Shown here: in pieces, positions 22,348 through 53,706 of the stretch
How the letters are laid out: each line of letters opens with the position of its first letter
Position numbering within the stretch: position 1 is the stretch's first letter
Source: a virus
Virus record (IMG/VR): IMGVR_UViG_3300020214_000005
Coordinates: 33,936 to 97,935 of that record
Strand: one strand, 5' to 3'
Length of the DNA: 64,000 bases
Notes under the pieces: model-generated
Databases searched by the model: none
Told to the model about the DNA's origin: nothing
Seen by the model: only the letters and a program-made list of their open reading frames with translations
Position numbers and translations under genes: made by a program

Positions 22348-24152
22348 CAGTTACTCCCGAAATTTCTTCCGGGACCCCTTTGGCGACCTCGGTTCGGATT
22401 ATTCGGCGTCCTAGTTATCGGTTGCATACGAGACGGAGGATTCTTTGGCACGTTGCGACCCGGAATTTCGCGAGGATTTACGGTCGCCGGTCTTGGTCGT
22501 GGGTTGTCGTCGGTCGGCATTCTTCTCGGGTAAGTGGGCTCTTGTCGCGGTCTCATTGGTCTCATTGGTCTCCGTGGGGCGGACGGCCCTCGTTCAAACC
22601 CTCGTCCGCCCCTCCCGCCATCCCCCCTGCGGGGCGGGTTCGGGTACCTGTCGGCGGGTCTCGGGTTGCCCGTCGCAGCCGATGGTCCTGGCGGACCGGA
22701 CGGCCCTGGTTCAAACCCTCGTCCGCCCCTCCCGCCATCCCCCCTGCGGGGCGGGTTCGGGTACCTGTCAGCCGGTCTCGGGTTGCGCGTCGCCGGGGAA
22801 GGTCCCTCGGGCGTCTGACCGGGCGGGTACTTTTTCGGCGGGGGGTTGGGGTACCTGTCGGCCGGCTTGGGATTTTTGGTCGCCGCGGATGGGGGTTCTG
22901 GCTTCTGTCCCGGCGGATATTTCTTCTGCGGGTCAGGGTACCTGTCGGCCGGCTTGGGATTGGTGGTCGCCGGAGAACGGACCCTCCCTCTTTCGATTCG
23001 ATTCTCCTCCTCGAGTCCTGCCATGTACGTCATCTTGTCGTACGCAGCGCGAGCCTTCGCGCGGGCGTCCCTCTCCTTCTGCGAGCGGTCCTGCACCTTC
23101 GGGTTGCGCTTGATGCCCTGTCTCCTTAGTTCCGAGCGGACGAACTTCCTGCGATCCATTTCGTACTTGTTGTTGCTCTGCCTCTTGTACGGGGCGCGCT
23201 GCTCCTGCGGGGTCCCCTCGAAAATAATTCCGTCCATGTCGTGGTCGATCGCCTCGTCGGCCGGTCCCATGGAGCCCGAGCCGATCGCGGCGCCGAGAGC
23301 CTTGACCGACGGGCGGACGGCGACGGACTTCGTCTCGGTGATCGGGCCTCCCGTCACCCACGCGCGGCAGGTCCTCTTCGACGCGCACTTGAAGTCGAAC
23401 GCCTCGCAGTAGCCGAGCCCGCCGGCCGCGTCGATCGCGTCCCACTCGTCCTTCCGCGTGGGACCGGTCACGCCCTTCTGTATGCACGATTTCATCTCGG
23501 GCGTGACGATGAACATCGAGCAGTTGCCGCACATCTGCTTGCGGGCCTGGTCTGGGGCGACAGCCCACTCCGTGGCGAGCTTCTTGTAGAAGGCGTCGTT
23601 GGGCTCGTCGGGGTTGAGGGGCCCGTACGTGGCCGTCTTGATGGCCTTCGTCCTGTTCTTCAGGTTGGTGGCGATGTCTCTCGTGGCTTTCGGGCAGTTC
23701 CCGGAATTGGCGGGTTCCTCCTTGATCTTCATCCTGCGCTTCCCGACGTTGGTGGGCATGACGGGCATCTGAGCGGCCGGGTCGTAGACGCCCTTCACCA
23801 CGCCGTCTGGGATCACGGCGAACCTGCACTTGCCGCCGTCCTCGACCTTCTGGGCGATTATCTTGCAGACCCCGTTCCCCGCGTACAGGGCGCAGTTTGC
23901 GCACTTGACGCCGATGTGCGCGACGACGTTGTCCTTGGCCGGCTCGTAGCCCGCCCATATCCCGGTCTCGTCCTCGTTGAACTTGCCGTACTTCTTGGCG
24001 ATGGCGATGAGGGCATCGGCGAGCTCCTGCTCCTCGGCGGCTAGCTTGGGCTTGACCTGCGCCGGCTTTTCTGGCTCGTCCTGAACGACCATTACGATCT
24101 CGCCTGAAACAAGCCTGCCGAGAATGTCGTTGATGTCCAAGAAATCTCCCAA
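22347..24152 (-). CDS. 601-aa protein with two HiPIP-like Cys4 domains, a DxDxDG tag and Pro/Arg-rich repeats
   Basis: CANC..C..C and CGNC..C..C; DHDMDGIIFEGTP; four NP(K/R)PADRYP repeats. Confidence 0.75.
   Translation of the reverse strand: MGDFLDINDILGRLVSGEIVMVVQDEPEKPAQVKPKLAAEEQELADALIAIAKKYGKFNEDETGIWAGYEPAKDNVVAHIGVKCANCALYAGNGVCKIIAQKVEDGGKCRFAVIPDGVVKGVYDPAAQMPVMPTNVGKRRMKIKEEPANSGNCPKATRDIATNLKNRTKAIKTATYGPLNPDEPNDAFYKKLATEWAVAPDQARKQMCGNCSMFIVTPEMKSCIQKGVTGPTRKDEWDAIDAAGGLGYCEAFDFKCASKRTCRAWVTGGPITETKSVAVRPSVKALGAAIGSGSMGPADEAIDHDMDGIIFEGTPQEQRAPYKRQSNNKYEMDRRKFVRSELRRQGIKRNPKVQDRSQKERDARAKARAAYDKMTYMAGLEEENRIERGRVRSPATTNPKPADRYPDPQKKYPPGQKPEPPSAATKNPKPADRYPNPPPKKYPPGQTPEGPSPATRNPRPADRYPNPPRRGDGGRGGRGFEPGPSGPPGPSAATGNPRPADRYPNPPRRGDGGRGGRGFERGPSAPRRPMRPMRPRQEPTYPRRMPTDDNPRPRPATVNPREIPGRNVPKNPPSRMQPITRTPNNPNRGRQRGPGRNFGSN
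22581..22975. repeat. Intragenic tandem repeats (117-bp-period pair plus related units)
   Basis: 22581-22676 nearly identical to 22698-22793; GGGTACCTGTC x4. Confidence 0.85.
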
Positions 24153-24221
24153 AAGATGGTAGTTAGATTATTGCACGTCTACGATGAAATAAACATAACC
24201 CATGTTCGCCGTGAAAGGCAA

Positions 24222-24264
24222 CGCCCCCGTCCCTGCCGAATGTTCCTCGGCCGAGACGGGGGCG
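24222..24264 (-). terminator. Hairpin after the major capsid gene
   Basis: CGCCCCCGTC...GACGGGGGCG inverted repeat; weak U-tract. Confidence 0.55.
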
Positions 24265-24289
24265 ACGCTTATTCCTGCGTTAGTTCGGA

Positions 24290-25624
24290 TCAGGCTGGTG
24301 CGCTGTTGAAGGTAACCTTCACGAAGGCTTCCGGCCTCTTGACCGCCAGCGCCAGGCGCTGCTCGGCCAGGATGACGATCGCGTTGCGGACGAAGAAGTC
24401 CGAGTGCTGTTCGCTGACTCGGATGCTTGCCTGCTCGCGGTCGTATAGCTGGGCGCCGGTTCCGAACGCACCGACGAGGGCGGTGCCCTCGGCGATTGCC
24501 GGTGACTCGACAACCGAGGTCCTCCACAGCCTCGGCTGACCGCCGAGAGCCACGGAAACCGCGACTAGGTACTGACCGTTGTCATCTTTCGAGAGTTCGA
24601 TCTTCTCCCAGTCGCTCGGGTGCATGACCACGCCGGTCGGCTCGTAGTAGGCAAGGAACGACAGGGTCAGGGCGCGACGAATCGCGTCTCCCCTATTGTC
24701 CCCGGTCTGACCAGACGACCAGTTGTAGGTCTGGATTCCCGCCGTCTGAAGGACGCCCCTCAGGTTCTCGCCCGACCCGCTGCCGTTGAGGATTTGCGAG
24801 TCCTCAAGGAGACGCAAACCGTACATGAGCTCGTTGTCGATGATGCTGCGGAGCTGCGGTTCGTCGGCCAGCACGTTGCGGTGCGCGGCTTCCCAGTGGG
24901 CAAGCGTGCGGACCGAAGCGGCTTCGGCGACGAACTGGAGGCTCGACTGCGGCTTGGCAGCGAACACGTCCGGGTTCGGAGTCGTGTCTCGCTGTGCCAC
25001 CGCAGCAGCGGCGTTTGTTGCCGTCGTTCCCGGCGTTGTGTAGCCGAGGTGACGGAAGTACTCGATCACGGCCGCAGTGGTCGTGCGCGACGGGAACAGG
25101 TCCCTGACGCGCTTCGTCCTCGTCGGCTGGGTGACCATCGGGTCGCGCTGCACGGTTCCGAAGTTCGCCGTCGCACCGTTGGCAAGGTTGCCCGTCGGCA
25201 TCGCCGAGAACACGTCCTTGACACCGTACTCGGTGAGCGAACCGGTGTACTGCCATGGTGAGGCCATGTTGGCACCGTTGCGTCCCCCGTTGAGGGCCTT
25301 GAACTCCGGTGAGTCGACGAACTGTTGTCCGATCGACCTCGGGGCTTGCTGAACTGGTGCGATGACCGCTGCTTGGGCGGCTATCGATGCATCGGCCGGG
25401 GATGAACCCCAGTCCTTCACCTGGTTGAGCGACTCGAGACCCTCAATGAGTCCCTTGATCTCGCGGATGTCGGACATGTTCTTGTCGAAGGCCGACTTCT
25501 GCTCGGTCGTAACGACGACCGTTCCGTTGTCAACGCGGAATGAGTCCGCGATCTCTTTGTTTTGCTGCATCTTTTCGCGGAGTGCTGACTGCAACTCGCG
25601 GAGCCTGCTCGTGTCTTCCGACAT
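24290..25624 (-). CDS. Major capsid protein, HK97 fold, with N-terminal delta/scaffold domain
   Basis: Coiled-coil N-terminus; L.D.PQL.S.ID.EL.YGL...ED.QILNG.G.G.NL.G; V.HP.DW; RN...ILAE.RL...V.RP.AF; AGGAGG SD. Confidence 0.93.
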   Translation of the reverse strand: MSEDTSRLRELQSALREKMQQNKEIADSFRVDNGTVVVTTEQKSAFDKNMSDIREIKGLIEGLESLNQVKDWGSSPADASIAAQAAVIAPVQQAPRSIGQQFVDSPEFKALNGGRNGANMASPWQYTGSLTEYGVKDVFSAMPTGNLANGATANFGTVQRDPMVTQPTRTKRVRDLFPSRTTTAAVIEYFRHLGYTTPGTTATNAAAAVAQRDTTPNPDVFAAKPQSSLQFVAEAASVRTLAHWEAAHRNVLADEPQLRSIIDNELMYGLRLLEDSQILNGSGSGENLRGVLQTAGIQTYNWSSGQTGDNRGDAIRRALTLSFLAYYEPTGVVMHPSDWEKIELSKDDNGQYLVAVSVALGGQPRLWRTSVVESPAIAEGTALVGAFGTGAQLYDREQASIRVSEQHSDFFVRNAIVILAEQRLALAVKRPEAFVKVTFNSAPA

Positions 25625-25749
25625 GATTTTGCCTCCTGGGCATTATTGTTGTTGCTGTTCTACTAGACAGCGCTAGGTGAGCACCCGCTGCTTGCGTCTG
25701 GATTCAAAGTTAGCAGAATACTAAACGCCGTAGTGTAAGTAGCGTATTT

Positions 25750-25956: not shown

Positions 25957-25958
25957 CC

Positions 25959-28900
25959 CTACCTCCCAGAGAACGGAATAGTTATCGTTTGCGTCTTGCG
26001 CACCTCAATTTTACTGCCATCGGGGGCTGTCCTGTCCTTGTACAAGTATCTTAACAGGTAGGGGTGCTTTATCTGGAGGATCTGCGGCGCACCCAGCTGC
26101 CCGAGGAGCATCTGTCCGACGAGGAGGGGTTTCGTCGGGTCCTTCTCCGAGTCCCAGATGTACAACTCGTCGAACAATTGCCTCTCAATGATGATGGGAA
26201 GTATCTGCTGGAGGTTCCACTGGATCTGTTCAACTATCCCTTCCGGCACGTGACGCCCGAACTGATCTTCCCTGTTCAGCACCCTTTTTTGGATGACTGG
26301 CAACGGTGCGAAGAAGTAGTGGCCGACGATGTTGTATCCCTTCTTGCGCCAGTCAACCAGGTCCTGGAACCCGTCGTTGAACTGTCCGCTGGTGTCGTAC
26401 ACGAGGTCAAGCCCCTCCTCCGTGGCGGCCCTCGCCATCACGGCTGCCACCTGCCGCGACTCTCGGTGCACCAGGCCGGACGCGCTCTCCAGCCTGCGCG
26501 CGTACCAGAGCCTCGTCTCGGGCATCATTATTTTTGCGTCGTCCGGATCCGCCACGATGGCGCTGTCGTAGTTCGGTATGCCCGCCAAACCCATGTTCCT
26601 CGCCGTGGACTTCCCGGTCCCTGATCCTCCCCCGAGTATGTAGGCGGTCGGTCTCTGCTGGTCGTTGGGAATGTCGCCCCTCCTCGCCCGCTCGAGACTC
26701 AACTCCACGTACGGCCTCCATAACTGCTCCACCCGGTCCTTGTCGCCCCAGGCCGCAAACAGGTCGTCCCCGCCCCTCGAGGTGCCCACCCTGTAGAACC
26801 CTGCGGTGTCGCTGCCCTTTTCGAGGTGACTCGGCGGCATCTTGCTTTGCACCGACAGGAGACCGAGCTCGCGTGGCAGCGAATCATCTATGGGTTTGTC
26901 CGACATGCCCGCCTCGGCGCCCGGTCCGAATCTCCAGGTGGATGCGGCGACCCTGTTGCCCCACGGCATCAACGGGTGGGGCATCTTGTTCGATCCAAGG
27001 AACAGCTTCCTCCCCGTGGCCCTGCGGATGTCGTTTATCTGGGCGATCATCTTCTGGTTCCTCACCCTCGCCGCCCGCGCAAGCATCCCGAGTCTTCTGT
27101 TGATCGACAGACTCAGGTCGCCGTACGGATCCGACGACGGATCGTTCTGCAGGTTTGCGACCGCCCTTCGTATCCACTCGGCATGGCCGAAGGCGAGCCT
27201 GTGCTGGCCCGCGGCTATCTCGGAGAGAGGAACCCAGCGAGCTCCCGACGCATCCGAGGCGGCGACGAGTTGCGTGTCCCAGGGGACGACGAACATTCCG
27301 GCGCCGACCCTCACCCCGTTGACGAACCTCGGGTCCCAGTCTGGGGCTTCCATGGCGCCGAGGTAATCCGCCTGCAGGGCGTTCTCAAGGGAAACCCCCA
27401 CCTCTTCGAAGGTCTCGCGGGTCGCGGTCGTCATGAGGTCCTCGCCATCGTCCTTCAATCCGCCGACGAGCGCCAAGGCATTCCTGTACGGGCCGCTCTT
27501 GCGCGTGATCATCGCTATCTCCGCCGTGCGAAGATCCAAGTCCCTCATCCTTATCATCACGGAGTCGGCCCCCTCGACGTAGATCGCGTCCTTGTTGAAG
27601 GACCAATTGCTGGTGCTCCAGTTGATGTCGTCTTCGGTGTAGTCAAGGTTGTGAAAGATGTTGAACGGCGATCCCATGGATATGTTGTCGGCGACCTTTC
27701 GCAGTTCCGATTCGCTCATATCGACGTCCCCGTAGACCCCCTCGAAGTAACGCCTCTGATCGACTTCTTCGGAGCGAGCGAAGTTCCCGACGATGGGCTC
27801 GATCATGTCGGCGAAGTTCCTCGCCATCCCCGCCTCGGCGTCGTCGGTCTCGTCCGGCATGTGCTCGTCGTTGTCGAAGTACAGGCGCATGCTTGACTTC
27901 AGTTTCGTGAGTCGCGTTTGTTCCGAGTTGTCGGTCACCATCGCGTCCGCCCTGTCCATGGCGTGCCTTATCGCCCCCAGGAGGTCCGCCGGTTCCTGGC
28001 CGTTGTCACCGAAAATGAGACGAGAGTTCGTTGGGCGCACGGCGTCCGCCGAGAACGGGGATTCCCCTCCCCTGAAGTCCACGGGGGAGATTTCATTGCT
28101 CGCCGCCATCAGTGAGTAGATGTCCATTAGGCGCTCGACCTCGTCGACCAGCTCCCCGTCGGTGGCCGTCCCCACGGCGACCGATATGCGTCGGTCCGAG
28201 TTAAACCACATCCCGTTCGCGAGGAGTTTGTTTCGCTTGAGGTCGTCACTTCTGTCCGTAGAGTTTGTTCTGGCGCGACTTGGCGACATTCCCGCCTCCG
28301 GACTCAACGGCATTCCGCTCAAAACCCTTGCCGTAGCAATTGTCGCCTCGATGACGTCCGGGCTTATGTTCTTTGATCGAAGCGCCTGTTTCACGCCGTC
28401 GTCGTTTTCGTTGCCCCTGAGCCTGTCGTTGAGAATCGCCAGGATCAGGTCGCCGAGGTCAATGAATTCGTTGCCTCTTTGCGAGGAGGCCTTGAGTGCG
28501 CCGATCAGCGCCCGGTGTGCGGCCTTCGTCCATTTGGTGGGTTTCGGGGAGGGACCGTCCTTCGGGGTGGTCACGCCTTGGAGGGCGTTGATCATGTTCT
28601 CTACCGAGATGTTCAGTCTTCTCAGGGCCGTCAAGTACGTACCAGTTTCGGGGTGGGTCATCACATATCTCCAGGCCCCCAACAGGAGGTGTCCTGCGTT
28701 TACATCGGGCGACCCCGACTTCGCCGCGTCCTCGTAGGCTTCCACGATTGAGAAAACTGTGTCGTTGGTGAACCGGGCCATCACCATTCTGGTCAGTGCG
28801 GACATGCCCGCCTCCGCGCCGGTTCCTCTGTCGCCTCTGTCGTAGGTCAGCTCGGGGAATCCGTTGGCGTCCAGCCATTCGTTGAAGGTTAAGAGCTTCG

Positions 28901-31900
28901 CGAATCTCTCGTCGTCGCTTAGCAGCGAGTCCTTGATCGGGTCTATCATCTCCCTCTTGTACCTCGGCAGCAAAATCCTCCGTTTGCGCGCCCGCTCGGT
29001 CGCAAGTATGAAGGGCTCCATCTCCCTGACGGCCTCGCCGAGCGTCTTGACCGACCCGTAGATGCCGCTCCGTATGTGCTGCTCGAAAAGGGTGCCCAAA
29101 GTATCCTGGGCCTCGGCGTAGTACCTGTTGTACCGGGTTAGGAATTCGCTCTGCTCGGGGGTGAGCTGACGAACATCGTCGGCGCCGTCGGCACCCGTGT
29201 GCCGTGCGATAATTCCCAAGAAAGTGACCCAACCGTCCTGGTCGTCGTGAATCTTTTCTACGACAGTCTGGCCGAATTCCAAATCACCGAACAGGGAATG
29301 GACGTGCGCGCGGGCGACCTCCTCCGCCAGCTTAAGGTGCGTCTCGTCGTTGATGGATCCGCTCTCTCGCAGGGTGTTCAGGAGTTGCTCTATGACATAC
29401 ATTTGTGTCTGGAAATCGGTCTGTCGCATCCCAATCCCAACCCTCATAGTGTCCAAGCCATTCTTGAACGCGGCGACCTGCCTGTATCCGATTTCCATGT
29501 TGGATCGGTGGGTCTGCAGGATGCCCTTGATCAGCGGTATCATGAAATTGTTTCTAAAATCGTTAGACTCAGGCCCGTCGGGTCTGCTCAGGATTGTGTG
29601 GGCCAAAGTCAGGTGCGGTTTTCCCCCGAACATTGTGATCACTTCGAGCGGTGACGTGATAAACATTTCTTTCATCGCATTGATTGACTCCGAGAAACTC
29701 TTGCCCGTGACGGGGTAGATGTCGTCCATTCGGTCCAGGTCCAGCCACGGGAAGATATTCTTCAGCTGACGAAGGACGGCGTCTTTCGTCACCGTTCCCG
29801 CTGGGATCCCTTTGATGATGGGCCCGATCCACTCGTCGAAGCGGTCCAGTTCGGCGACTGGGTAGCCCATTCCCAGAAGCCGTCCAAAAGCCCTTTTGAG
29901 CAACTGGCTCGGTTTCTCCTCGACGAGCGCGGCATCCTCGAAGGCAATCATCGACGAAACGTAGTCCGCGAACTCCTCGGGGTGCATCTCCAGTATCTGA
30001 TCGTCCCCGAGTTCACCGTAGGCGGATGCGGTCTCCCACCAGTACTTCCCCGGGGTCTCGTCTATCACGCGCTGCAATTCTCGTAACGATTCTCTTTCGG
30101 CGGCGAGTGCTTCGGGGGTGAGCGCTGAGCTCGCCGCGCCCGGCTCCGTGATCGGGTTTGTCTCATCGTTCCAGCCCGGCAGGTAAGGATTGCCATCCGG
30201 CCCGGAGTAGACGATGTTTGGTCCGTACATCGACCAGTACCCGTACGAGTCGACCCTTGGTCTCGCAAACCTGAACCAGTCGGTGTCGTTGTCGCCAAAA
30301 GGGTCAGACGACGTGGTGAGGGGCGTATGGAAGGGCGAGATCTTCCTCTTGTCTCGCGCGGCGATTGATTGGACAGCCTTCCTGTAGATGCTCGTGGCGA
30401 GCACGTCGGCGAGGATCCTCGCCAGAATCTTCGTCGACTCGATCATTTGCGTGGCTTGGCGCGCGGCCTCGCCACCCGACGATGGGTACAAACTGGACCA
30501 GGCCTCGGTCGGCAGTGCCTCCATCAAGAGCAGTCCTGGTTGCTCGGCCACCTCCTGCAAGGCCTTGAACAAGGAGTCGAAGGTGAAGGCGAACACTTGG
30601 TCATCCATCTCCCTCGTCGGGATGTAGAGCGGATCGCCCAGCATTCTCTCGGAGCCCGGCTCCTCGGGGATGTTAGGGGAGGCAGTGATATACGGGTTTT
30701 TCGGCATGATACTTCCGAACGCGTCCACCATCGGTTCAACCGCCGTGTACATGCCGTAGACCCAGTTGGCCATCATGATTTGCCTCGGCGTGAGGTTGTC
30801 GACTATCTTCTTGGCCTCGGCATTTCCCTCCAGCACTGAGCCGAGCAGGAGATTGGAGAACATGGGGACGCCTTGCAACAACGGTAAGTCGGTATTTGAT
30901 CCCGCTTCCCATGCCATCGTCCCCTCCGTCGTCGATGGCGCTATTTGGTCACTCGGCTGGTCAATGGTCCCTGTCGGGGTTGCCCCGAACTTGCTTCGCA
31001 GCAGGTTCCTTTCGTCCGTCGCCGCCATCATCGGGATGAGCAGGCGCATTACTTTCTCGTCGCCCGGTTCGAACATCGGTGGAGCGTCGACCAGGTTCGG
31101 GTTTCGCATGATCTGCTTCATCTGCCATAGCTTGAGGCGCAGTTCATCATTGACGTCCTCGGGAATTTCCGGCGCGGGGAGAATGCCCGATGCTACGCCT
31201 TCAATCAGGGTGTCTGTCCCAACTTCGACTGATTCGGAGGAGATGCGGTCCGAATCAGGGGAAAGTCGCCTGAACCATTTGTCGTAAATCGCCTGGAGCA
31301 TTCCCCTCAGCATCGGCATGATGCCTCTGTAGAGGCCGGTTCCAAGGAATTCTCCTCGTATCACCGATGGAACGGTGTCGAAGCCGAACAGGGGGAACGT
31401 TGAGTTCTCCTGACGCGTGGCTATATCGAAGTTCCTGAATCTCTTGGCCCGCATTTTCCCGGCATCGCCCTGCGCAACATCGCCAAGCATCCCAATGTCC
31501 ACATCTTCGGAAGCCAAGTCGTCGAGGTGATCACGAGTTGAGCCGAAAATTGCGTCGTGGGTGGTCTCGTCGCCCGTCGTGTTATCGAGGTATCCGCCCT
31601 CCAGCGCGAATGACGTCCAGAGGGATATCACCCGACCCAGCATCTGCATTCTTTCCGGGTCCTTCGCTTCGCCATCCACGCCCAAAGACGCAGGCGAGCC
31701 GGGGTTGATGAAGGGATCGGCAACGATGGCTGGTGGCATCTGAAGTTCCGGGTCCACGGAAGTGCCGTCCGCGCGAGTCGGCCTGTCCTCTCTCCAGTTG
31801 GCCGACGGGCCGTCCGACATCGGGGTGTTGTCGGGCAACCTGCGATTTGCCATTCCTGCCTCGGCCCCGCCATACGAGTCGTACGCATCGTCCATCCGCG

Positions 31901-40877: not shown

Positions 40878-40950
40878 TTTTCCCGTTCACTCGCGCTCTG
40901 GGCGCGCTTTTAGTACCGATAAGAATACCCCAACAGGAGCATTCGCAGAG

Positions 40951-41901: not shown

Positions 41902-42308
41902 GGCAACTGCTCATCGGCGAACATCACCCATTCCTTGGCGAACCGGTTGTAATCGCTAGCCGTTTGAGACTTCACGGACTCTTCAGATAGGCCCGCGTCC
42001 CTGTACCCGCGGGCGATGACCTCCCGAGCAGCCTCCTCCGGCGAGTAGCCCAGGGACCTCCAGGCGCGAGCCTCAACGAGTTCTTCGGAGTACGCCTGAA
42101 GGACGGCATCAAAGGAGTCGTAGGGTTTGTTCTTTTTCACGAATTCGTCGAATTCCTTCGAGAGCACCAACACGAAGTCGTTCTCCTTAGCGTTCGTGGG
42201 GATGCTGAAGGGCGGGAATCTTGCGTCTTCGGCGACGGACTTGAAATCGTCCAGCACTTCGTGCATCTCGGCCTCGGTCATGTGGTTTGTTTTGAATCTG
42301 TCGCTCAT
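41883..42308 (-). CDS. 141-aa acidic protein coupled to the 1869-aa ORF
   Basis: ATGA overlap. Confidence 0.65.
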   Translation of the reverse strand: MSDRFKTNHMTEAEMHEVLDDFKSVAEDARFPPFSIPTNAKENDFVLVLSKEFDEFVKKNKPYDSFDAVLQAYSEELVEARAWRSLGYSPEEAAREVIARGYRDAGLSEESVKSQTASDYNRFAKEWVMFADEQLPWGGLV

Positions 42309-45300: not shown

Positions 45301-47914
45301 TCTGTACCGGCGACAATCCGATGGGGACGTTCCCTTTCGGGGGGGACGGAGACGAAGTGGGTTGTTGGGGCGGCGTCGGGGCGACGGGCGTGGCGGTGAC
45401 CCTGGGCGTCCTTGACTTCCTTGGTTTCGGTTTGCTGGTCTTGGAGACCTGCGGGACCAACCCGACGTTCGCCTCCGACAGGATCTTGTCTCGCGCGGGG
45501 ATGGTGAGGGCCGACCACAAGGGTTCCATCGAAGGGCCGACCTGCCCCCGGGTTCCATAGACCACGGGCGCGGCCGAGGTAACTAGCTCGTCCAGCACGA
45601 TCAGGTTGTGTGCGTACTGCTGGATCTTGGCCGCATCATCCGGGGCGAGGTTCAAGATGCGGGTCGCGAGCACGTCCTCCGTCATGGGCGTGTCCCCCGC
45701 GATGTTGAGTTTGCTCCGCAGATAATCTGCGATGCCATGCCTCAGCCTATGGGCGCTTTCGATGATCGCCTGCTGCTCCAGCGCCGTGTACTCCGTTATC
45801 TTTTTCAAGTCGGCCGGTTTTTCGGGCGTGAACACGAGTCGACGAGGTTGGATCTTGCTGAGCGGCAGCAGGAGGGATGTCATCGATCCCCGCTCGCGCC
45901 ACTTCGGATTGATGACCGTCCGCTCCCCGATGGCGCCCTGGGTCCTCCGGTGACTGGCGTCCCTCATGTCTCTTCTCTGGATCTCCGCCGCCCGCGACAC
46001 GACCGACCTGTTCCTGTCGTCAATCATCCGCCAAGCAGAGGACTGCTTCGCTGGGTCCGTGGACGAGAGGATGTCGTCTATGGCGAGCAGGGCCGTGACG
46101 TCCGGGTACAGGTTGGCACCGCCTTCCGTCAGGAAATAGTGGCCGTCGGCCACCGCGTTGGCCACCGACTCGGGCGTGACGACCCCGTCGACTCGGTAGT
46201 CCGGGTCGCCGGGGAGTTCGGGCGTCATGATTTCGTTTATGCTCGCGACGAGTTGGTCCCGGCGAGACCTGAGTTGCCCGACCAAACTTGACTGCTCGGC
46301 GGGCGTGAAGTCGGACCACTCTATTTCGTCCTCGGCGAATCTGCTGTTGAAGGGCCGGCGCGCGCCATTGGGTTCCGTCGCCCTGAGCGCGTCGATCGCC
46401 GACAGGAGGTTTCGCTTCGACGCATCGTCCATCAGCCACGGGTCGCCGACGACACCACTTGGCGCATCGGCGGGGGTGGGCGGAACGGGGACATCGTCCA
46501 TGTCCGCGGTCTCCGCGGCGTCGGATCGGCCCAAACCTCTTGAGATTCGTGAAAGACGAGCCGAGAGCCTGTCGAGTATGCGCTCCCCGTCCTTGCGGGG
46601 ATTTTTCCCGTGACCGGATCTTTGGCCGCCGCTGGAGCCCCGGGCGATGTCGGCCTCGGTTCTTTGCTCGGCCGCACGGACGATCGGGGATGTCTCCGGT
46701 GACTCGCCCCTCTCGTTTCGCATCGCCGCCATCGGTCCATCGCCGAACGGACGCGAGACGAGGTTGCCTGCCTGTGCGAGGCGGGATTCGCCCTCGAGGA
46801 TCCGCCTGTTTTCCCTCCTAGTCCTTGGCCGGTCCCCGATGAAGGAGGATTGCGTCGCTGGCTTTATGCTGTCGGCCAAGTCGGACAGCCGCCTCCTGAG
46901 CCTGCTGGCTCCCGCGGCGTTTTGCGAGGCATTGGGAATTAGGCGGTTCAAGTCGTTGGTGGCCGCTGCCAGCGCGTTGATCCTCTCGGCTTCGGCGTTC
47001 CGTCTGGTCATCCTCGACACCCTGGACGGTTTGTTGAGTATGTTGGCCATCCCACCGCCGAATGACCTCACCCCGCGGATCATCTCGCCCATCCCCAGCG
47101 GGGTCGGATCAAGGATTCCCCGTCCCATGTTGATCCACGGGATTCCCTCGTAGATCAGCGTGTCGGAGTCGGCGTCCCTCACGATGTGGGGCGGGGGCAG
47201 GTTCACCAGACCGATCGGCGCCGATTTCTCGAAGTAACCGATCCTGTCGAGGAAGACGAAGGCGTTCGTCTTTATCTTCCTGTCGAACCTCTCGAGGACG
47301 TTGGTCAGATCCATCGCCGGCCTGGGCATCGCCCTCCAGCGACCGTCGAACACGGTTGCCTTCGAGCCCTTGACGCACGTGATGAACGATGCGAAATTTT
47401 TGTTCCTGGTGAATTGCCTCGCTTTGAATTCGACGGCGTCCTTTTTGATCTGCACGTCGAACATGCTTATGCCGACGTCCGACATCAGCCAGGTCTGTAT
47501 CGGTTCCGATTCGGGTTCCTGTTCCTCCACGGGTTCCGGGGGGAGCGCCTCGGTGTCTCCGGTCTCCGCCGATTTGGACTCGATGTCCGGGAACTCGATG
47601 CTCACCGGCGCGTTCGGGGCATCGCCTTCTATCAGTGCGATCAGATGTTTCGCGGTCGTGGGACCGAACAGGGAGTATCTCGCCATCAGGTTCTCCCTGC
47701 TGAGGGGGACGAACTCGGTCATCCTGAGGGACGGGTCGAGGGACAGACGTATCTGGTCCAACGATTTGGCGCCCGCGTTCACCCAGCCCGCCCAGTCCTT
47801 GCCCTGCTTGACCGAGCCGTGGGCAGTCATTCTCCCCTCGTCAAGAACGACGACGGCGAAGGTGGTGTTCGTGTCGCAGTCGTTGACCGTGGAGAAGAAA
47901 GTTTCAGACCCCAT
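42305..47914 (-). CDS. 1869-aa protein with the shared tag and a C-terminal ART-like region
   Basis: DADSDTLIYEGIPWINMGRGILDPTP; G..G.P..V...EF, RRG, G.GG..G.G.NFA and VLNRTALV pattern. Confidence 0.8.
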   Translation of the reverse strand: MGSETFFSTVNDCDTNTTFAVVVLDEGRMTAHGSVKQGKDWAGWVNAGAKSLDQIRLSLDPSLRMTEFVPLSRENLMARYSLFGPTTAKHLIALIEGDAPNAPVSIEFPDIESKSAETGDTEALPPEPVEEQEPESEPIQTWLMSDVGISMFDVQIKKDAVEFKARQFTRNKNFASFITCVKGSKATVFDGRWRAMPRPAMDLTNVLERFDRKIKTNAFVFLDRIGYFEKSAPIGLVNLPPPHIVRDADSDTLIYEGIPWINMGRGILDPTPLGMGEMIRGVRSFGGGMANILNKPSRVSRMTRRNAEAERINALAAATNDLNRLIPNASQNAAGASRLRRRLSDLADSIKPATQSSFIGDRPRTRRENRRILEGESRLAQAGNLVSRPFGDGPMAAMRNERGESPETSPIVRAAEQRTEADIARGSSGGQRSGHGKNPRKDGERILDRLSARLSRISRGLGRSDAAETADMDDVPVPPTPADAPSGVVGDPWLMDDASKRNLLSAIDALRATEPNGARRPFNSRFAEDEIEWSDFTPAEQSSLVGQLRSRRDQLVASINEIMTPELPGDPDYRVDGVVTPESVANAVADGHYFLTEGGANLYPDVTALLAIDDILSSTDPAKQSSAWRMIDDRNRSVVSRAAEIQRRDMRDASHRRTQGAIGERTVINPKWRERGSMTSLLLPLSKIQPRRLVFTPEKPADLKKITEYTALEQQAIIESAHRLRHGIADYLRSKLNIAGDTPMTEDVLATRILNLAPDDAAKIQQYAHNLIVLDELVTSAAPVVYGTRGQVGPSMEPLWSALTIPARDKILSEANVGLVPQVSKTSKPKPRKSRTPRVTATPVAPTPPQQPTSSPSPPKGNVPIGLSPVQSRLGDFGEATKTPVSVVVDATNRVVTTTLEDGTQETKPLSSFGRPNQYDLTNSLLIDDVFYVFEPSLGLYRDPVTGNYLTDYSQVPISINSQISIADALGPVQSSKKLPDLVSYPSITPSKDDTGRKYGLSDEGPQKLTVTEVLARVFNIDEELAKDLLGTKIYYAPGVLPGKSTNSFRQAALLLLNTSTLNNAIPQGEKQKLQMLDVVDIPEGSDPIESYLNYIGRPDIAVGYVAAGRPANFLEFQSRATQARSPRANATNAREGMNIPDTSLLPEHLKGYDFNRYYRSAILSSIFAAEDPSDDFQTLIPGMAADAKPRVRKMVVLWRHPDNFSMKHLAYRDNLTQVQEIALAVNKALSTDHPNDWFAAFEAVRNAYDQARERRRDALNKWRNVKGAASRSPRPRREFILAGEMLESLETILADIFENNMHKVEDSVRQKSAGTARVVNEMGRLRKRAVQSGLRNVAGLEESLLIPPVNLDGTPLPPRGVDEILGMVERHTTLGFLPHIPRTLTSDDPIELAELSEEAISTLALINMAVEELKDPETQRPLQEVLGRHHMGNPQRNALHNAIYWATGAKGRPILVTEDEFELLAGSTMLKEVTVPPVSGDQWVMNFVEMRRGIAMAKPPMTTNQMAAELIKGPLYIVGEGGEHGGSGINFARRAGMLNYGGRDPSGDIVLALIPRTTRIENKDRMSAIHGQLLEMYGAFFSAITHFSGIEKTMPIDLDADNDPDWSHDNMANPFYRSNRSLTAHGYFVPYGKKSVGAHRGQIGGATLESHARAKGITIPQVDTADPEAIRDLAKILLTISEDLFSRNDNEFSWDSERGARVDAQADPLYGKQWWRATRMQIFGWMVQLEVLKSMEMAKLKAEGKVPWNERLANLVSAQEILSFWNDEVTMGMLFGVDVYQSGGDLPMTQNPVALFRPSVIGDHIMVLNRTALVMLHKPVTQAAEAEIYSLIRNPQIRKPDDPSKVWNPYYQRWIDDPDFGTTAQDET

Positions 47915-49997
47915 TGATGACGTTCCTGATGAACTTCAGGGATCCGGAGAGTAACCTCACCCTGTTGTCGTAGATTACCGAGACTATTTCCATGTGGCGG
48001 CGCTCTGCCTCCGAGAGTTTCCCGTCTATCGCCATGCGCCTGTAGAATTCTGCCATATCGAACTGCCGTGCTCGCTCAAGTATTTCCTCCAGCAACGCCT
48101 CCGCGCGCCTTCTCTGCTCCTTGCGCAGGCGCATGAAGAACGCTCTGTACATTGAGTTTTCCAGCTCGTTGAGGACGGCGGTTTTGGGCATGTTGATTCT
48201 CTGCTCCAGCTCGTTCCTCGTCAGGCCTGCGCCACCGGATGACGCGACCGGCCCCGCAAAGGTCCTTTTCTGGGACGAGTCTCCGACGGTGAACAGGTTG
48301 GACGGGTTCCTTTCCCTCACGTCCGTGAGCATGTCGGCGATCATCAACCTGACCATGTCCTCGGGGTCGGCCAGGTCCATCCCCGTGCTCCTGGCGAATC
48401 GCCCGAGGGATTCGGAGTCATTGGGGTACGAGACTATATAGGGTCTCCGCGAGCCCGAACCGGTGAACCAGACCTCTGGCGACAATGCCCCCAACTGGGA
48501 CTGCACCTCGGCGGCGACCATGACACCTATGTGCTCGTTGGCGAGAGTGGGCGTCACGGCCGTCAGCAGGTCGTCGCCGAGTCTGTAGCGGGTCATGCGG
48601 TTGTTCAGTCGCCTGCTCTCCGAAAGAGGACTCAGGTCAAGGGCGGGAATCCGCAACTCGGGCGCGATGTTGCCGATCTGGCCCCCTTGGTTCAGCATGT
48701 TCACTGCCATGCGGAGATCGTCGATCATCCCGGCCTCGTCCTCGATCTGGGTGGGCCGAGAGGACATTTGGCGCGGAGCCTTCTCGAGCGCGAACGCGTC
48801 GCGGTACCAGCGACGCATCTGGCGTTGTTTTTTCGTTCTCGGATCCATGACGGTGATCATGTCGTTCGGCCCGCGGAGATCACCGAAAGATTGCTCGTAG
48901 GCGACAGGGCCGTCCATCTCCGCGGCAATGTGCTCTATTCTTGCTCCTGCGTCGGATCCGTTCTGCATGTGCTCGGCCTCGGCCACGAGCCTGCCGAGTT
49001 TTCGTCTCTCCCCGTTGCTCAGGTTGCGGGTCTTCCTCAGGGTGAGCGTGCCGCCGTTCGGCAAAACGTAAACGAGGGCATTTATCCCGCTGTTTGAGAA
49101 CATCCCCAGTTCGTTTCCGCCTATCTGCGCCGGCTTGGCCACGTACAGGACGTACGCGGCCCCGTCCATGTTCCTATTGTCTGGCACGGTCCTGAGAACG
49201 GTCGGCGACACGAGGGGGCTGAGGACGACGCCATCCCGCCTGACCAGCCTCGCCACCGGTCTGGAAAAGTCCGTCATTTCCGACGACACGTTTTTTATCG
49301 CCGATTTGTACAACCCGAAATTTGGGGAACCGACCTTAGGGATCTCGATTTCGGGTTTCCTGATCACGGAGACCTGGCCCATTTCCCCGATCGGCTTTAC
49401 GGGGACGCCCGAAATGTTCAATTCGCGCGGGAGACTCGGGGAGCGCAACTCCAGCGTCTGCGAGGCGCCCGTCAGGATCGAAACGGCGAGGGCGAACAGT
49501 TTTTTGCCGCACGTTGAGTAGTACTTGTCGGTGAATTGTCCGCCGAACTGGAACCCTTCCGGGCAACGGAATCCCCTGTCGGGTTTCGGAAACGACGCCG
49601 CGGCGGCCCTCGCTAGCGGGTTTTGGACGATCGATGACACGGGCGAGCCGCCCCCGGGCGTCAAGGCCGACCACATCGCCGACCTGCCTGGGCTCCTCAC
49701 CGTGGACATGTTGCCGGGCATGGCGACGGCGACCGCCGACTGAAGCGCCCTGCCCACCGGGTTGGACGACCCGACGAGGCCGACCTTGAACTTGATTCTG
49801 TGGTCGTAGATCGCGCCGTCGGGGCCGACCTTGGCCATCTGGTAGCACTTGAAGTCGACCGCATTCTGCTTGCTGGTCGCGACGGACAAGGGCAAGGTGT
49901 AGACGTTGTCCCTCGACACGGCGATGGACGGCAGTATCGTCCTGACCATCGTCCCTTTTCGGGGACAACATTCCGTCGTTTCGGTCACGTCAGACAT
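47904..49997 (-). CDS. ~697-aa protein with an RCP...FTD...C motif and a C-terminal degenerate HipA/PI3K-like kinase domain
   Basis: FRCPEGFQFGGQFTDKYYSTCG; DEAGM linker; LG..SPEV...IADML.DVRERNPSNL. Confidence 0.7.
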   Translation of the reverse strand: MSDVTETTECCPRKGTMVRTILPSIAVSRDNVYTLPLSVATSKQNAVDFKCYQMAKVGPDGAIYDHRIKFKVGLVGSSNPVGRALQSAVAVAMPGNMSTVRSPGRSAMWSALTPGGGSPVSSIVQNPLARAAAASFPKPDRGFRCPEGFQFGGQFTDKYYSTCGKKLFALAVSILTGASQTLELRSPSLPRELNISGVPVKPIGEMGQVSVIRKPEIEIPKVGSPNFGLYKSAIKNVSSEMTDFSRPVARLVRRDGVVLSPLVSPTVLRTVPDNRNMDGAAYVLYVAKPAQIGGNELGMFSNSGINALVYVLPNGGTLTLRKTRNLSNGERRKLGRLVAEAEHMQNGSDAGARIEHIAAEMDGPVAYEQSFGDLRGPNDMITVMDPRTKKQRQMRRWYRDAFALEKAPRQMSSRPTQIEDEAGMIDDLRMAVNMLNQGGQIGNIAPELRIPALDLSPLSESRRLNNRMTRYRLGDDLLTAVTPTLANEHIGVMVAAEVQSQLGALSPEVWFTGSGSRRPYIVSYPNDSESLGRFARSTGMDLADPEDMVRLMIADMLTDVRERNPSNLFTVGDSSQKRTFAGPVASSGGAGLTRNELEQRINMPKTAVLNELENSMYRAFFMRLRKEQRRRAEALLEEILERARQFDMAEFYRRMAIDGKLSEAERRHMEIVSVIYDNRVRLLSGSLKFIRNVINGV

Positions 49998-50565
49998 CCG
50001 CGTCGAACATCTCCCAGTTGCTGTCATCGCAGATGAACGCCACGAACTTGGCTTCCATTTTCACGAAATCATCCATGACCTCCCATGCGTGATCCCAGTC
50101 GTCGTCGGTCACGACCGGAACGAACGGCTCGTACGCAGGGGCGGAGTCGATGCCGCCGCTTGACCGCAGGTCCTTCTTCTTCGCCACCCTGCGGGTCAGC
50201 TTCCTGAGCCGATCGTCGAAATCCGAGTCGCTCCAGATTGACCCGCTCACGACCCCGCGCAGCTTCCTCCTGCAGTTCTTCATCCCGGGGTGATGGCAAC
50301 CCTCGTTGGGCCACAGGCCGGTCGTCTCGTGGTGCAGCCAGGCGCAGATGTTGTTCAGCGGGTAGAGCTCGGGGTGGTCCGCGAGTATCACCCTGCACCT
50401 CCGGAAACCACCGGGCTTTTTCATGATCGGACGCCAGTAACGGAGCAACCTCTCGAGGTTGCCCCTTCTGGGCCCGTAGCCCCTCAAGATATCGCCCGTC
50501 ACCACCTCCTGCGGCAGCAGGCCGCCGAGCGGGTCGAGTTTTATGTCTATTTTGTCATTCGGCAT
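49990..50565 (-). CDS. Head-module hypothetical protein (GN.ERL.RYW...G.FRRC...CAWLHH..TG.WP)
   Basis: Motif recalled from actinophage head-associated proteins; function unknown. Confidence 0.6.
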   Translation of the reverse strand: MPNDKIDIKLDPLGGLLPQEVVTGDILRGYGPRRGNLERLLRYWRPIMKKPGGFRRCRVILADHPELYPLNNICAWLHHETTGLWPNEGCHHPGMKNCRRKLRGVVSGSIWSDSDFDDRLRKLTRRVAKKKDLRSSGGIDSAPAYEPFVPVVTDDDWDHAWEVMDDFVKMEAKFVAFICDDSNWEMFDADV

Positions 50566-50944: not shown

Positions 50945-50949
50945 TGTGT

Positions 50950-53706
50950 TCAGCCTCCTGCGCTGGTTCTGTTCATGACCGACCTGGCCCAGGCGATCAT
51001 CTCGGCGTGCAGTCTTTCCACGGCACGCCTTTCTTTCTCATTCAATTTTCGCATAAATTTCTCCATTTTCATCAGCATAACTGGATGTAATTCCGCATAG
51101 GTTTCCGAATTGCTGGCCAACTGGAACTTTGGCAGGAAGTTATGGTTGTCGTAGTCCGCTGGACCTGCGTAATCCGTGATTTTGGACACCGCCGACTGGA
51201 CGAGCCTGATTTCGTCATCCGTAAGGTTTTTCCAGCCGTTGCTACCCTGGACGGCGTACCACCTGTTCACCACCTGGGCGAGCATTGTTGTGTCGTTGCT
51301 CGTTGCGTCCTTCAGGTACTCGGTCGGGCTGAACGCCCCGTTTTGGTCAAACCAGGGACGGTTGTGATGCCGCCCGTAAACTTCCATGAATTCCTTGACG
51401 ACTGCTGGATTCTCTGAGATCAGGTTTGTCATCAGGATTCTGCCCCCGTCTATGTTGACTTGTTTGATCATCTCCTGGGTGACATTGTTGACGAACCAGT
51501 CGTTTGCGTAATCGAAACCCTTGATTTTGTTTTGCGCATCGGCATAAGCGTTGCGGGAGTTGGAGATGTAGGCGTAGAGCCCGTTGGTGTGCTTGCTGTG
51601 CGCAGCCACAACCGCCGAGACCAACGCCACGGCGCGCTGGGCCGGTTTTGGCAATCTGTCTATTTTTTTGTAGGCGCCCTTGATCATTGGTTCTATACTC
51701 TCCGTGTAGAACCTGTATTGATCCATGTCGCTCAGTTTCGTGATACTGGCGATGCTTTTCTCCCCGATCTGCCTCAACCGATCCATGGCCTCCTGGGCCG
51801 TTCGCAGCAATTTTTCGGGCTGGTAGAGCAGATCGCGCCGGATGATGCCCGAGTTGATTATCTCGCCAGTCGTTTTTTCGAGTCTCTTCGGACTCACCGC
51901 CGGCCCATGTTGGCTGTCGTCGGCGAATCCCTTGTAATACAGGTTGACCAACCTTTGTCTGTCCGAATCTCCGATCCCCGCGGTCAGGATGGAGTCAATC
52001 AGCGGGTCCAACTCGGAAAGCTCGTCCTTTATGTCATTGGCGATAGCTAGAGCAATCGGAAAATCCCCTAATTCGGACTTGGCGCGAATCATTTCCAAGA
52101 CCGTTGATTTGACGAAATCGCGAGACACCATCTCCGAGAGATCGTCCCTGATCGGATGGTCCATTCCCAATCGCAGGGATGCCAGGGTGTACAGATCCCG
52201 ATCCTCCTCGTATTGACTGTTTATCCCGGTCGACGCCTTAGACATCGCCTGTTTGTACCCAGGGGAATTCTTGTAATCACCGATGAAATCGAGCCCGTGC
52301 CCAAACTCATGTGTGGTCACCACGAGCGACGCGGCCTTATTCGTATGGGAGTACACCTCGGCCATTCGTTGCTCGAGGGATCGGATCGATTGAAGGGCGT
52401 TCTCGTTCGGCACCTGCGAGTTGGCGCTCCTCATCTGCGCTATCTTTCCTTCTAGGTCTTCCATTTCCTGGATGCCGCCCACTATTACCGACATTGCCAC
52501 GGAATCCAGAAGCGGTTGGGTCGTCTCGCCGGTCTGATCCAACACGTTCTGCCAGAAATCGAGAAGTTGTTTTTTCATTTCCATCATATCGCCCGGCGGG
52601 TTCGCGATCTTGCCGTACGCCTTGTTGGGGTCCTGTCGCAAAACTTGCAGCGACAGGTTGAGCATCCCGGAGGGGATAAGCCTCATCAGGGCGCCTTTTT
52701 GGCCTTCGCTCTTGTAGATCGGTAGCATTATGGCTATCGGTATTCGCGCGCCGCTGGTGACCCTGCCTCCTAGTATATCCATCGCAAACTGACTCATGTC
52801 CTTGGCGCCCGAGACCGCCTCTTGGGGCATAGATAGACCTGCCAACCGCGTTTGACGCTCGTTTCGGGAGTCCTGCGATATGAGGTAATAGGTAGGCAAC
52901 GCCGCGCTGCGGCCCCCGGCGTGATCACTTTCCGTCGCTTCGTCTGGGGGGTTTGTCGCCGCGACGAGGAGATGGACATCCCTGAAGGCTTCGGGATATT
53001 CGAGAACGTTCGCGGCCACGCCGTAGTAGACGCCGTAGTCGTAGCTGGACATCGGGGTACTGTCCCCCGAGAACCGCGGGCTCACTGCGCTGAGTTCGGG
53101 TTGCATCTGGGAGGCGAAATACGGGATATCTAGTTTGAAGTTGCTGCTTCCGGACTCTCTTGAGTTGACCAAATTCTCCAGTCTCTTCAGGCTGTCGGTC
53201 GCATCCCTCAAAGTTTTCGGTTTCGTCCCCAGTACCGCGTCGACACGGGTTTCGACCTCCTCGACGGAGGCGAAAATTTCGTCCATCAACATAATGTTCT
53301 CGGGCCTGGAAAAGATTCTCGAGCTGTACATGGCCGCCATCGGCCCGTCTGCGTGGCTCATTGTCATCAATGGGCTCGGCCGCATCGCGCTCATTCGTTT
53401 CGGGGTTCCGAGCTCGGCTTGCGCCTCCCGTCTCAGCCTCCTGTTGAGGGGTTGGAAATTCCCCGGAGTTGGGTCGATGATCCCTCGTCCCCTGTTGATC
53501 CACGGGATTCCCTCGTAGACGTAGGGGTCAAGGTCGGCGTTCCTCACGAGGTGGGGCGGGAGGAGGGGTTTAGCGCCGATGGGTCGCAAGATCTTGGTCC
53601 TCACGGTCTCCGTCAGCTGCGTCACGGACGACAGGGCGGCATCGGTCTTGTCGTCGACGAACGAGTCGCGACCCCTGCGCCTGGAACCTATCTTTCTACG
53701 AGTCAT
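50950..53706 (-). CDS. 918-aa protein with the shared tag and a zincin-like HExxH domain
   Basis: NADLDPYVYEGIPWINRGRGIIDPTP; HEFGH (52297-52311); C-terminal ETYAE. Confidence 0.8.
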   Translation of the reverse strand: MTRRKIGSRRRGRDSFVDDKTDAALSSVTQLTETVRTKILRPIGAKPLLPPHLVRNADLDPYVYEGIPWINRGRGIIDPTPGNFQPLNRRLRREAQAELGTPKRMSAMRPSPLMTMSHADGPMAAMYSSRIFSRPENIMLMDEIFASVEEVETRVDAVLGTKPKTLRDATDSLKRLENLVNSRESGSSNFKLDIPYFASQMQPELSAVSPRFSGDSTPMSSYDYGVYYGVAANVLEYPEAFRDVHLLVAATNPPDEATESDHAGGRSAALPTYYLISQDSRNERQTRLAGLSMPQEAVSGAKDMSQFAMDILGGRVTSGARIPIAIMLPIYKSEGQKGALMRLIPSGMLNLSLQVLRQDPNKAYGKIANPPGDMMEMKKQLLDFWQNVLDQTGETTQPLLDSVAMSVIVGGIQEMEDLEGKIAQMRSANSQVPNENALQSIRSLEQRMAEVYSHTNKAASLVVTTHEFGHGLDFIGDYKNSPGYKQAMSKASTGINSQYEEDRDLYTLASLRLGMDHPIRDDLSEMVSRDFVKSTVLEMIRAKSELGDFPIALAIANDIKDELSELDPLIDSILTAGIGDSDRQRLVNLYYKGFADDSQHGPAVSPKRLEKTTGEIINSGIIRRDLLYQPEKLLRTAQEAMDRLRQIGEKSIASITKLSDMDQYRFYTESIEPMIKGAYKKIDRLPKPAQRAVALVSAVVAAHSKHTNGLYAYISNSRNAYADAQNKIKGFDYANDWFVNNVTQEMIKQVNIDGGRILMTNLISENPAVVKEFMEVYGRHHNRPWFDQNGAFSPTEYLKDATSNDTTMLAQVVNRWYAVQGSNGWKNLTDDEIRLVQSAVSKITDYAGPADYDNHNFLPKFQLASNSETYAELHPVMLMKMEKFMRKLNEKERRAVERLHAEMIAWARSVMNRTSAGG

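Follow-up and report, generated by a model that had tools for sequence, protein, structure and literature searches.

A conserved peptide shared by the prohead protease and giant head-module proteins of uncultured phages, a candidate procapsid docking signal

The window analysed here makes up 64 kb at the right end of an IMG/VR contig of 97,935 bp (IMGVR_UViG_3300020214_000005; CheckV completeness ~65%). Three giant proteins encoded in this window, P0001, P0002 and P0003, each carry one copy of a conserved peptide of ~45–50 amino acids that ends in DPTP, hereafter the tag. In related phages the same peptide is found C-terminal to the prohead protease in a single polypeptide, as well as on further giant proteins of the head module. 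We read the tag, with moderate confidence, as a putative procapsid-interior docking peptide that is common to the protease and the cargo polyproteins. Signals that target proteins to the capsid have been described, to our knowledge, in a few model phages (T4, P1, HK97 and the phiKZ group) and have no recognisable common sequence. Here, a strongly conserved and easily recognised peptide is found on the prohead protease and on several giant multi-effector proteins throughout a whole clade.

The three carriers and their tags are as follows.
25959–40877, minus strand: P0001, a 4972-residue polyvalent polyprotein, directly upstream of the capsid gene
40416–40562, minus strand: tag copy 1, residues 106–154 of P0001, KALG ... 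DADLDG..LEG.P.IN.GRG.PDPTPG
42305–47914, minus strand: P0002, a tagged protein of 1869 residues
47093–47227, minus strand: tag copy 2, residues 230–274 of P0002
50950–53706, minus strand: P0003, a tagged protein of 918 residues with an HExxH motif (HEFGH)
53461–53595, minus strand: tag copy 3, residues 38–82 of P0003

A six-frame regular-expression scan of the whole 97,935-bp contig returned exactly three matches to EG.P.IN.GRG, all on the minus strand and one each near the N-terminus of the P0001, P0002 and P0003 open reading frames (ORFs). The core coordinates (40419–40496, 47099–47176 and 53464–53541, respectively) agree within 2 nucleotides with those of the initial annotation, which had described this core as a tag on otherwise unrelated head-module proteins that follows a Lys motif and precedes the first linker. 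The conserved module proved longer than that core and extends from the Lys motif to DPTP(G), with the consensus K-[AS]-L-G-P-x-[IV]-G ... R-[ND]-M-N-P-x-T-A-x-[DN]-A-D-x-D-x-x-V-L-E-G-[IV]-P-T-[IV]-N-x-G-R-G-[VI]-x-D-P-T-P-[GF]-G; the Lys motif (K-[AS]-L-G-P in the family) is confirmed and lies inside it. The carriers are indeed otherwise unrelated, as the tag is the sole significant similarity between them in pairwise BLASTP (E 6e-15, 3e-8 and 1e-7). The placement before the first linker also holds: the first EAGM linker of P0001 ends at residue 711, and the first small-small-Met sites (residue 524 in P0001, residues 289 and 398 in P0002 and residue 126 in P0003) are all past the tag. In searches within the genome, a three-copy profile gave 95–114 bits for each of the three tags, and a 32-copy profile gave 71–82 bits versus at most 7 bits for everything else except a half-copy in the protein P0004. 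Extended to related phages, the profile scan that had been proposed as a check found 2–5 copies per tagged relative, besides the three strong copies here.

Searching 1.84 billion representative proteins with the three-copy profile produced 40 matches at E ≤ 1e-3. Five of these are false positives (repeat or Excalibur-like proteins with several matched stretches each). The other 35 are single-copy tags, among which P0008 may be the window's own 918-residue protein; they occur nearly all in giant proteins (up to 6391 residues) and always in the N-terminal part, within residues 15–575. A degenerate DNA pattern encoding E-G-x4-N-x-G-R-G-[VI]-x-D-P-T-P has 43 sites in IMG/VR, all 43 of which carry upstream conserved residues that the pattern did not demand, and one site in 596 Gb of prokaryote genomes, a true tag on a 13-kb contig of an Actinomycetota metagenome-assembled genome. 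The tag-bearing sequences are of metagenomic origin only, and the carriers are a clade of uncultured, mostly freshwater phages with Actinomycetota possibly as hosts.

The tag is conserved well above its surroundings. Among clear orthologues it is 62–85% identical, versus 25–56% for the rest of the protein, and it is kept across genomes of 48–60% guanine-cytosine (GC) content, with copies that differ synonymously. This pattern bears on the possibility that the tag has no function of its own and is only a leftover sequence or recombination junction that gene conversion has carried from one paralogous giant gene to another. The P0002 and P0003 copies (47084–47191 and 53449–53556) do have a 31-nucleotide stretch in common, with a single mismatch and identity at synonymous positions, and they share the derived residues LPPPH.VR and YEGIPWIN, which are missing from the orthologues in other lineages. 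These features suggest some gene conversion or concerted evolution between the two copies. However, the protein sequence of the tag is kept across that range of GC content more than its flanks are, a single copy sits at a fixed N-proximal place in each protein, and a position behind the protease is kept even in diverged tags; we give very little credence to a functionless remnant.

AlphaFold2 run on the 32-sequence alignment of the tag returned a predicted local distance difference test score of 55, with no fold and no secondary structure. None of the 32 tags matches any Pfam family at E ≤ 10, and a PDB sequence search with the tag profile gave no match. The lack of an autonomous fold in the model fits a linear docking peptide. 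In the acidic half that opens the tag, D-x-D-x-D and a Glu at position 10 hardly vary and recall, as D-x-D-x-D-(G)-x-x-x-E, the spacing of the Excalibur motif DxDxDGxxCE. The resemblance to DxDxDG/Excalibur calcium-binding loops that had been pointed out earlier is one of motif, and one Excalibur-like protein (P0047) is a marginal match of the tag profile. It does not extend to the family itself (PF05901), since no Pfam model matches, the Cys is missing, and position 6 holds Gly in only some copies and often R or P, or else K or L. From this motif-level resemblance, the acidic half may bind Ca2+ or Mg2+.

The combination of an acidic DxDxD(G)xxxE loop, an invariant D-P-T-P behind it and a conserved Lys could also point to chemistry at the peptide itself, namely Ca2+-dependent self-processing or cross-linking at the invariant Asp-Pro in the 'clip-and-link' manner of FrpC, which would anchor the N-terminal fragment to a capsid lysine. 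The self-processing module of FrpC is a region of ~170 residues after the Asp-Pro bond. That region is a conserved Ca-binding domain, whereas no such conserved sequence follows the DPTP of the tag, where the paralogues are not conserved between each other. The missing Pfam and PDB matches and the existence of half-tags without DPTP further argue against a mechanism of this type, which we regard as highly improbable.

The link to the protease comes from five larger related records (G001–G004 among them), two of which are complete genomes with terminal repeats. They carry 2–5 tags each, and their capsid proteins are 72–82% identical to that of the window. In the related phages, all tagged genes fall within the interval from the prohead protease to the HK97-type capsid gene, and in each of the five the capsid gene comes immediately after the largest tagged ORF. 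In G002, which is complete at 138 kb, a portal fused to a MuF-like head-morphogenesis domain is followed by the head maturation protease, large ORFs (two of them tagged) and the capsid protein, so that the tagged genes fill the protease–capsid slot of a canonical HK97-type head module. In G001, G003 and G004, Pfam Peptidase_S78 lies N-terminal to the tag in the same frame (3190, 4580 and 3750 residues, respectively), and Peptidase_S78 is joined by DUF6321 upstream of the tag in these ORFs and in the representative proteins P0020, P0029 and P0031. P0020 consists of Peptidase_S78 (residues 28–171), DUF6321 (residues 194–265) and the tag (residues 532–574), followed by Sigma70_r4 and further modules. 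A 300-residue protease–DUF6321 module, 78–90% identical, precedes the tag in P0020, P0029, P0031 and 17 of the IMG/VR pattern loci. Peptidase_S77, the T4 type, was found in none of the five related records. The cargo modules of tagged polyproteins in the relatives include DnaJ, NUDIX, Zeta_toxin, Sigma70_r4 and Mor- and LuxR-type helix-turn-helix domains (P0017, P0020), which suggests delivered modifiers of transcription and of the stress response.

Five further complete genomes were picked by capsid-protein similarity alone (67–71% identity). An S78 protease is present in all five, in three of them at the head of ORFs of 3400–4000 residues. Degenerate tags occur at the equivalent post-protease position, for example KALG...DANLNSMVGDGTP...QPDPTPSG, DRNRNGIVGEG...QPDPTPEG, FDPDNDGWVDEG and DGDSDG; their pattern is either KALG ... 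DxNxNG..GEG ... PDPTP or DGDSDG, and in G007–G010 they keep the same place after the protease. A tag universal in the capsid-protein clade was rejected, as these five genomes show only degenerate versions. The region downstream of the protease looks like the widest-spread home of the motif and is probably its ancestral one, and the sharp 50-residue tag that was copied onto other giant proteins looks like the mark of a subclade.

Each lineage has its own over-represented linker, which always ends in Met: EAGM here, SDSGAM, SDTGAM, GPVGAM, PTASM, PSGSM and DTGRM elsewhere, and ISGRM in G002. Every tagged protein carries the linkers of its lineage. A [GAS][GAS]M site lies within 30 residues after the tag in 14 of 37 proteins, versus 3 expected, and in further loci lineage-variant linkers stand directly behind the tag, for example DPTPGGPVGQM and DPTPFGADSGLM. 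The candidate sites of the window are listed together with the capsid protein.
39306–39329, minus strand: GDEAMAAM, residues 517–524 of P0001, the first small-small-Met site after the tag
46721–46744, minus strand: GDGPMAAM, residues 391–398 of P0002, a putative boundary or cleavage site after the tag
47048–47062, minus strand: FGGGM in P0002, a small-small-Met site earlier than GDGPMAAM
53329–53352, minus strand: ADGPMAAM, residues 119–126 of P0003, a putative boundary or cleavage site 45 residues after the tag
24290–25624, minus strand: HK97-fold major capsid protein, 444 residues (Pfam Phage_capsid, E 2e-42), with an N-terminal scaffold-like (delta) region of 115 residues
25265–25279, minus strand: NGANM, residues 116–120 of the capsid protein, invariant in the capsid proteins of six related genomes

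Each tagged window protein has exactly one D-x-x-M-A-A-M, which ranks first or second among the small-small-Met sites behind the tag, and MAAM has one occurrence beyond these three in the six-frame translation of the contig. At the same place the relatives have FA[LVMI]AAM or [EG]PMAAM, including after the tag of the G003 protease polyprotein. NGANM lies where the boundary between the delta (scaffold) region and the mature part of an HK97-type capsid protein is expected, and its small-small-x-Met make-up resembles that of the polyprotein linkers; it is a candidate maturation cleavage site. The pattern fits a single S78 protease that would cut both the capsid protein and the polyproteins at small-small-Met sites. 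An alternative explanation of EAGM as a ribosome-binding site (GAGG-N5-ATG) does not generalise: the 16 ISG[RQY]M linkers of G002 (loci L045/L046) use many synonymous codons, and a Shine-Dalgarno core accompanies one of the 16. The varied codons indicate that the linker is a peptide signal, and the GAGG in the EAGM codons of the window is probably a by-product of coding.

Because linker-like sites follow the tag more often than chance, the tag could itself be a processing element, either an exosite on the polyproteins for the protease or for an HExxH domain, or a mark of the first cut in an ordered processing. The D-x-x-MAAM and FA.AAM sites that follow tags, the lineage linkers in every tagged protein, and the zincin-like HExxH domains in P0003 and in the untagged window protein P0005 are in line with this explanation. 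However, P0005 and a second untagged protein, P0006, have linkers without a tag, and in P0001 the first small-small-Met site is 371 residues behind the tag. The tag on the protease polyprotein itself also fits co-localisation better than recognition of a substrate by its enzyme. We consider a processing element unlikely.

A prohead protease has to be inside the procapsid. Here it shares an unstructured peptide with giant head-module proteins, behind which a cleavage-type site tends to lie, and a common docking signal is the simplest explanation of these facts. The docking reading thus draws on the restriction of the tag to giant ORFs of the head module, its presence on the protease polyprotein, its conservation above the rest of each protein, the lack of a fold of its own, and the linker-type site that often follows. 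The initial annotation had proposed a common capsid-loading or shell-anchoring signal analogous to the T4 capsid-targeting sequence (CTS); the shared signal is the part best supported by comparison, and the T4 analogy differs in detail. The tag would recruit proteins into the assembling HK97-type procapsid, probably via the inner face of the capsid or via the scaffold (delta) domain. The sequences establish that the protease polyprotein and other giant polyproteins have the tag in common; with the same peptide on the protease polyprotein and on two to four other giant polyvalent polyproteins, the enzyme and its substrates would be co-encapsidated. Inside the procapsid, the S78 protease would then cut the lineage-specific small-small-Met linkers (EAGM here), the first of which is commonly just behind the tag, and these cuts would release the cargo modules (NUDIX, zeta-toxin-like kinase, sigma-70 region 4, DnaJ and others), which could then exit together with the DNA.

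Several observations weigh against this docking reading. The contig is ~65% complete and lacks the protease gene, so that the protease link rests on the relatives. In G002 the protease is encoded in a separate ORF, with only the degenerate DGDSDG. The five complete genomes picked by capsid similarity have no profile-level tag (four give no match, and one gives only 14-bit matches). A tblastn search of 50,697 GenBank phage records with two versions of the tag found nothing, and no cultured phage among these records carries it. P0005 and P0006 have EAGM linkers and no tag, which indicates that the tag is not needed by every linker-bearing protein and is not the sole route into the head. Finally, no model match supports Ca2+ binding by the tag.

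The two untagged proteins carry a second motif.
47904–50027, minus strand: P0006, 707 residues, one EAGM, no tag, with the motif RC..G..FTD..C at 49509–49565
53927–62464, minus strand: P0005, a 2845-residue polyprotein with EAGM linkers and no tag, with the motif RC..G..FTD..C at 61664–61717

This motif, RC-x(1-2)-G-x(5-7)-FTD-x5-C, is N-proximal and has exactly two occurrences in all six frames of the contig. Both fall in large proteins with linkers, precisely the two in which the DPTP tag is missing, and the motif is invariant in the P0006 family. The N-terminal domain of P0002 (residues 7–197) is homologous to a 2459-residue protein of G002, which has the motif variant RCPPETPNGGQFTN...GC at the place where P0002 has the DPTP tag. 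By this substitution, the tag and RC..G..FTD..C look interchangeable.

Alternatively, the tag could be an ejection leader or portal-docking peptide. It would keep the N-terminus of each giant protein at the portal or tail channel, so that the unfolded chain leaves first or in sequence at infection, possibly in response to divalent cations. The N-proximal position of every tag, its disordered character, rich in Pro and Gly with an acidic DxDxD loop, the two to five tagged proteins per genome and the existence of two seemingly interchangeable N-proximal motifs would all suit this role. However, the prohead protease also bears the tag and needs no ejection, and a cut at the adjacent site would part the tag from its cargo before ejection. 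We rate an ejection leader as slightly less likely again than a processing element. The docking reading may instead be extended to a two-address system, in which the interchangeable DPTP tag and RC..G..FTD..C would send the protease and the giant cargo to two procapsid sites (for example, shell or scaffold versus portal) and would set copy number and possibly ejection order, with the DxDxD half as a possible divalent-cation switch that releases cargo at maturation. This scheme is speculative, and we think it improbable as a whole. If it were true, each of the two peptides could serve to bring arbitrary proteins into capsids of the HK97 type.

P0006 belongs to a large, uncharacterised family. 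Of 8000 candidates scored, 198 reach E ≤ 1e-5, all of them metagenomic; a homologue is present in all five of the larger related records, and tblastn of P0006 against the 50,697 GenBank phage records found nothing. Residues 230–707 are modelled confidently by AlphaFold2, and the first 230 residues are predicted to be disordered. The best Foldseek matches of the model are atypical protein kinases (Helicobacter pylori CtkA, E 6e-5, then PI4K, PI3K and CotH), and ESM Atlas gave only a weak lead to PI3/PI4 kinases. The C-terminal 480 residues are thus predicted to adopt a protein-kinase-like fold, and P0006 is probably a packaged kinase-like effector. A role as portal was ruled out by the separate portal–MuF protein of G002 and by the protein-kinase-like model.

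A diverged copy of the tag is found in a fourth protein of the head module.
22347–24152, minus strand: P0004, 601 residues, just after the capsid gene, with a Cys-rich N-terminal domain, a half-tag and a basic Pro-rich repeat tail
23208–23303, minus strand: half-tag, residues 284–315 of P0004, KALGAAIG ... IDHDMDGIIFEGTP

The shorter copy that had been reported in this 601-residue protein is present as the first half of the tag; the second half, IN.GRG..DPTP, is missing. The match is weak (pairwise E 0.003; 14–16 bits and E 7e-4 to 5e-3 in profile searches of the genome). The pattern KALGA.IG ... ID.D.DG.IF.G.P is kept in the P0004 orthologue of the closest relative, where a half-tag is also present in a second protein with a basic repeat tail, and for this reason we take the half-tag of P0004 to be genuine. 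The Cys-rich domain (residues 34–121) is encoded in all relatives by a small gene after the capsid gene; in the five larger related records, this homologue follows the capsid gene directly. The protease polyproteins of G008 and G010 (loci L136 and L137) contain a domain with 60–67% identity to the Cys-rich domain, which follows the protease and precedes the degenerate tag. In its C-terminal half, P0004 consists of a very basic repeat rich in Pro (NP.PADRYPNPP), and the protein is possibly a DNA-associated internal protein.

The nearest functional parallel is the T4 CTS, which is carried by the internal proteins IPI–III and Alt and is removed by the prohead protease gp21, the cargo being delivered with the DNA (PMC7411985). 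The T4 CTS is a short peptide that is common to otherwise unrelated proteins of the head interior or of the ejected cargo and that precedes a protease site; the tag resembles it in being common to unrelated giant proteins and in often preceding a candidate site. However, the T4 CTS is ~10–20 residues long and lies at the extreme N-terminus, whereas the tag has 45–50 residues and lies 15–575 residues from the N-terminus. The T4 CTS ends in L/I-x-E and is cut by an S77 protease, whereas here the protease is of the S78 (HK97) type and the candidate sites end in Met. The two have no sequence similarity. As length, position, protease family and site rule all differ, the tag appears to be a functional analogue of the T4 CTS that lies outside the T4 CTS family.

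In 2013, Duda, Oh and Hendrix reportedly identified the C-terminal part of the HK97 protease gp4 as a capsid-targeting signal. In most relatives the tag is likewise C-terminal to the S78 catalytic domain in the same polypeptide. It differs from the gp4 tail in that ~340 residues (DUF6321 and a middle domain) separate protease and tag, and in that the peptide is duplicated onto other giant proteins with a cargo polyprotein behind it. The protease of Brevibacterium phage Cantare, the nearest cultured relative (41% identical in the catalytic part), has an acidic C-terminal region and no tag. Encapsulin cargo-loading peptides are a functional analogy only: they too are short, disordered peptides that dock diverse cargo inside an HK97-fold shell, but they are C-terminal motifs of ~10 residues with no sequence relation to the tag and no protease processing.

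The giant tagged proteins fit the class of polyvalent proteins, giant multi-effector proteins encoded beside head genes, for which packaging and processing by peptidases are predicted (Iyer, Burroughs, Anand, de Souza and Aravind, 2017; PMC5512222). P0001 and its relatives combine several unrelated effector domains in one polypeptide, their genes lie beside an HK97-type capsid gene, and zeta-toxin-like, NUDIX and zincin-like domains are present. The packaging modules named in passages of PMC5512222 on polyvalent proteins are MuF domains, portal fusions and the DarA/DarB type, and these passages do not mention the tag. Very large anti-defence or ejection proteins are guided into the head by a segment at their N-terminus in the cases of P1 DarB (PMC9024508) and the propeptides of SPN3US (PMC7411985). 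Such signals are not conserved motifs held in common with the protease, belong to other phage lineages and have no sequence similarity to the tag.

If the tag is an address label, it would explain how proteins of 900–6400 residues enter an HK97-type head, it would provide a sequence rule for the prediction of virion-delivered effectors in metagenomes, and it could serve as a portable tag for loading proteins into HK97-like capsids. Together with the lineage-specific Met-ending linkers and the invariant capsid NGANM, it makes the specificity of the S78 protease directly testable.

On the minus strand, the head module reads 5´ to 3´ as P0005, P0003, two small ORFs, P0006, P0002, two small ORFs, P0001, the capsid gene and P0004. 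In addition to its tag and ten EAGM linkers, P0001 contains DUF3721, NUDIX and zeta-toxin-like kinase (Zeta_toxin/AAA_33) domains. Pfam and PHROG assign no family to P0002, P0003, P0005 or P0006, and a PDB sequence search left P0003 and P0006 without a match. Among the window proteins, cultured relatives were found for the capsid protein only, which is 44–46% identical to the capsid proteins of Cantare and Gordonia phage GMA6; the portal, terminase and protease of Cantare have no counterpart in the 97,935-bp contig.

The contig ends 1.5 kb beyond P0005, and the protease gene is not part of it. An ORF at 62682–63998 on the minus strand runs off this end. Synteny with G003 predicts that it encodes the C-terminal portion of another tagged protein, ~1870 residues long, and that a protease-headed polyprotein of ~4580 residues follows past the contig end. 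To the left of the head module, the plus strand encodes an SNF2-family helicase (15534–17477) and a C-5 cytosine DNA methyltransferase (19763–21142).

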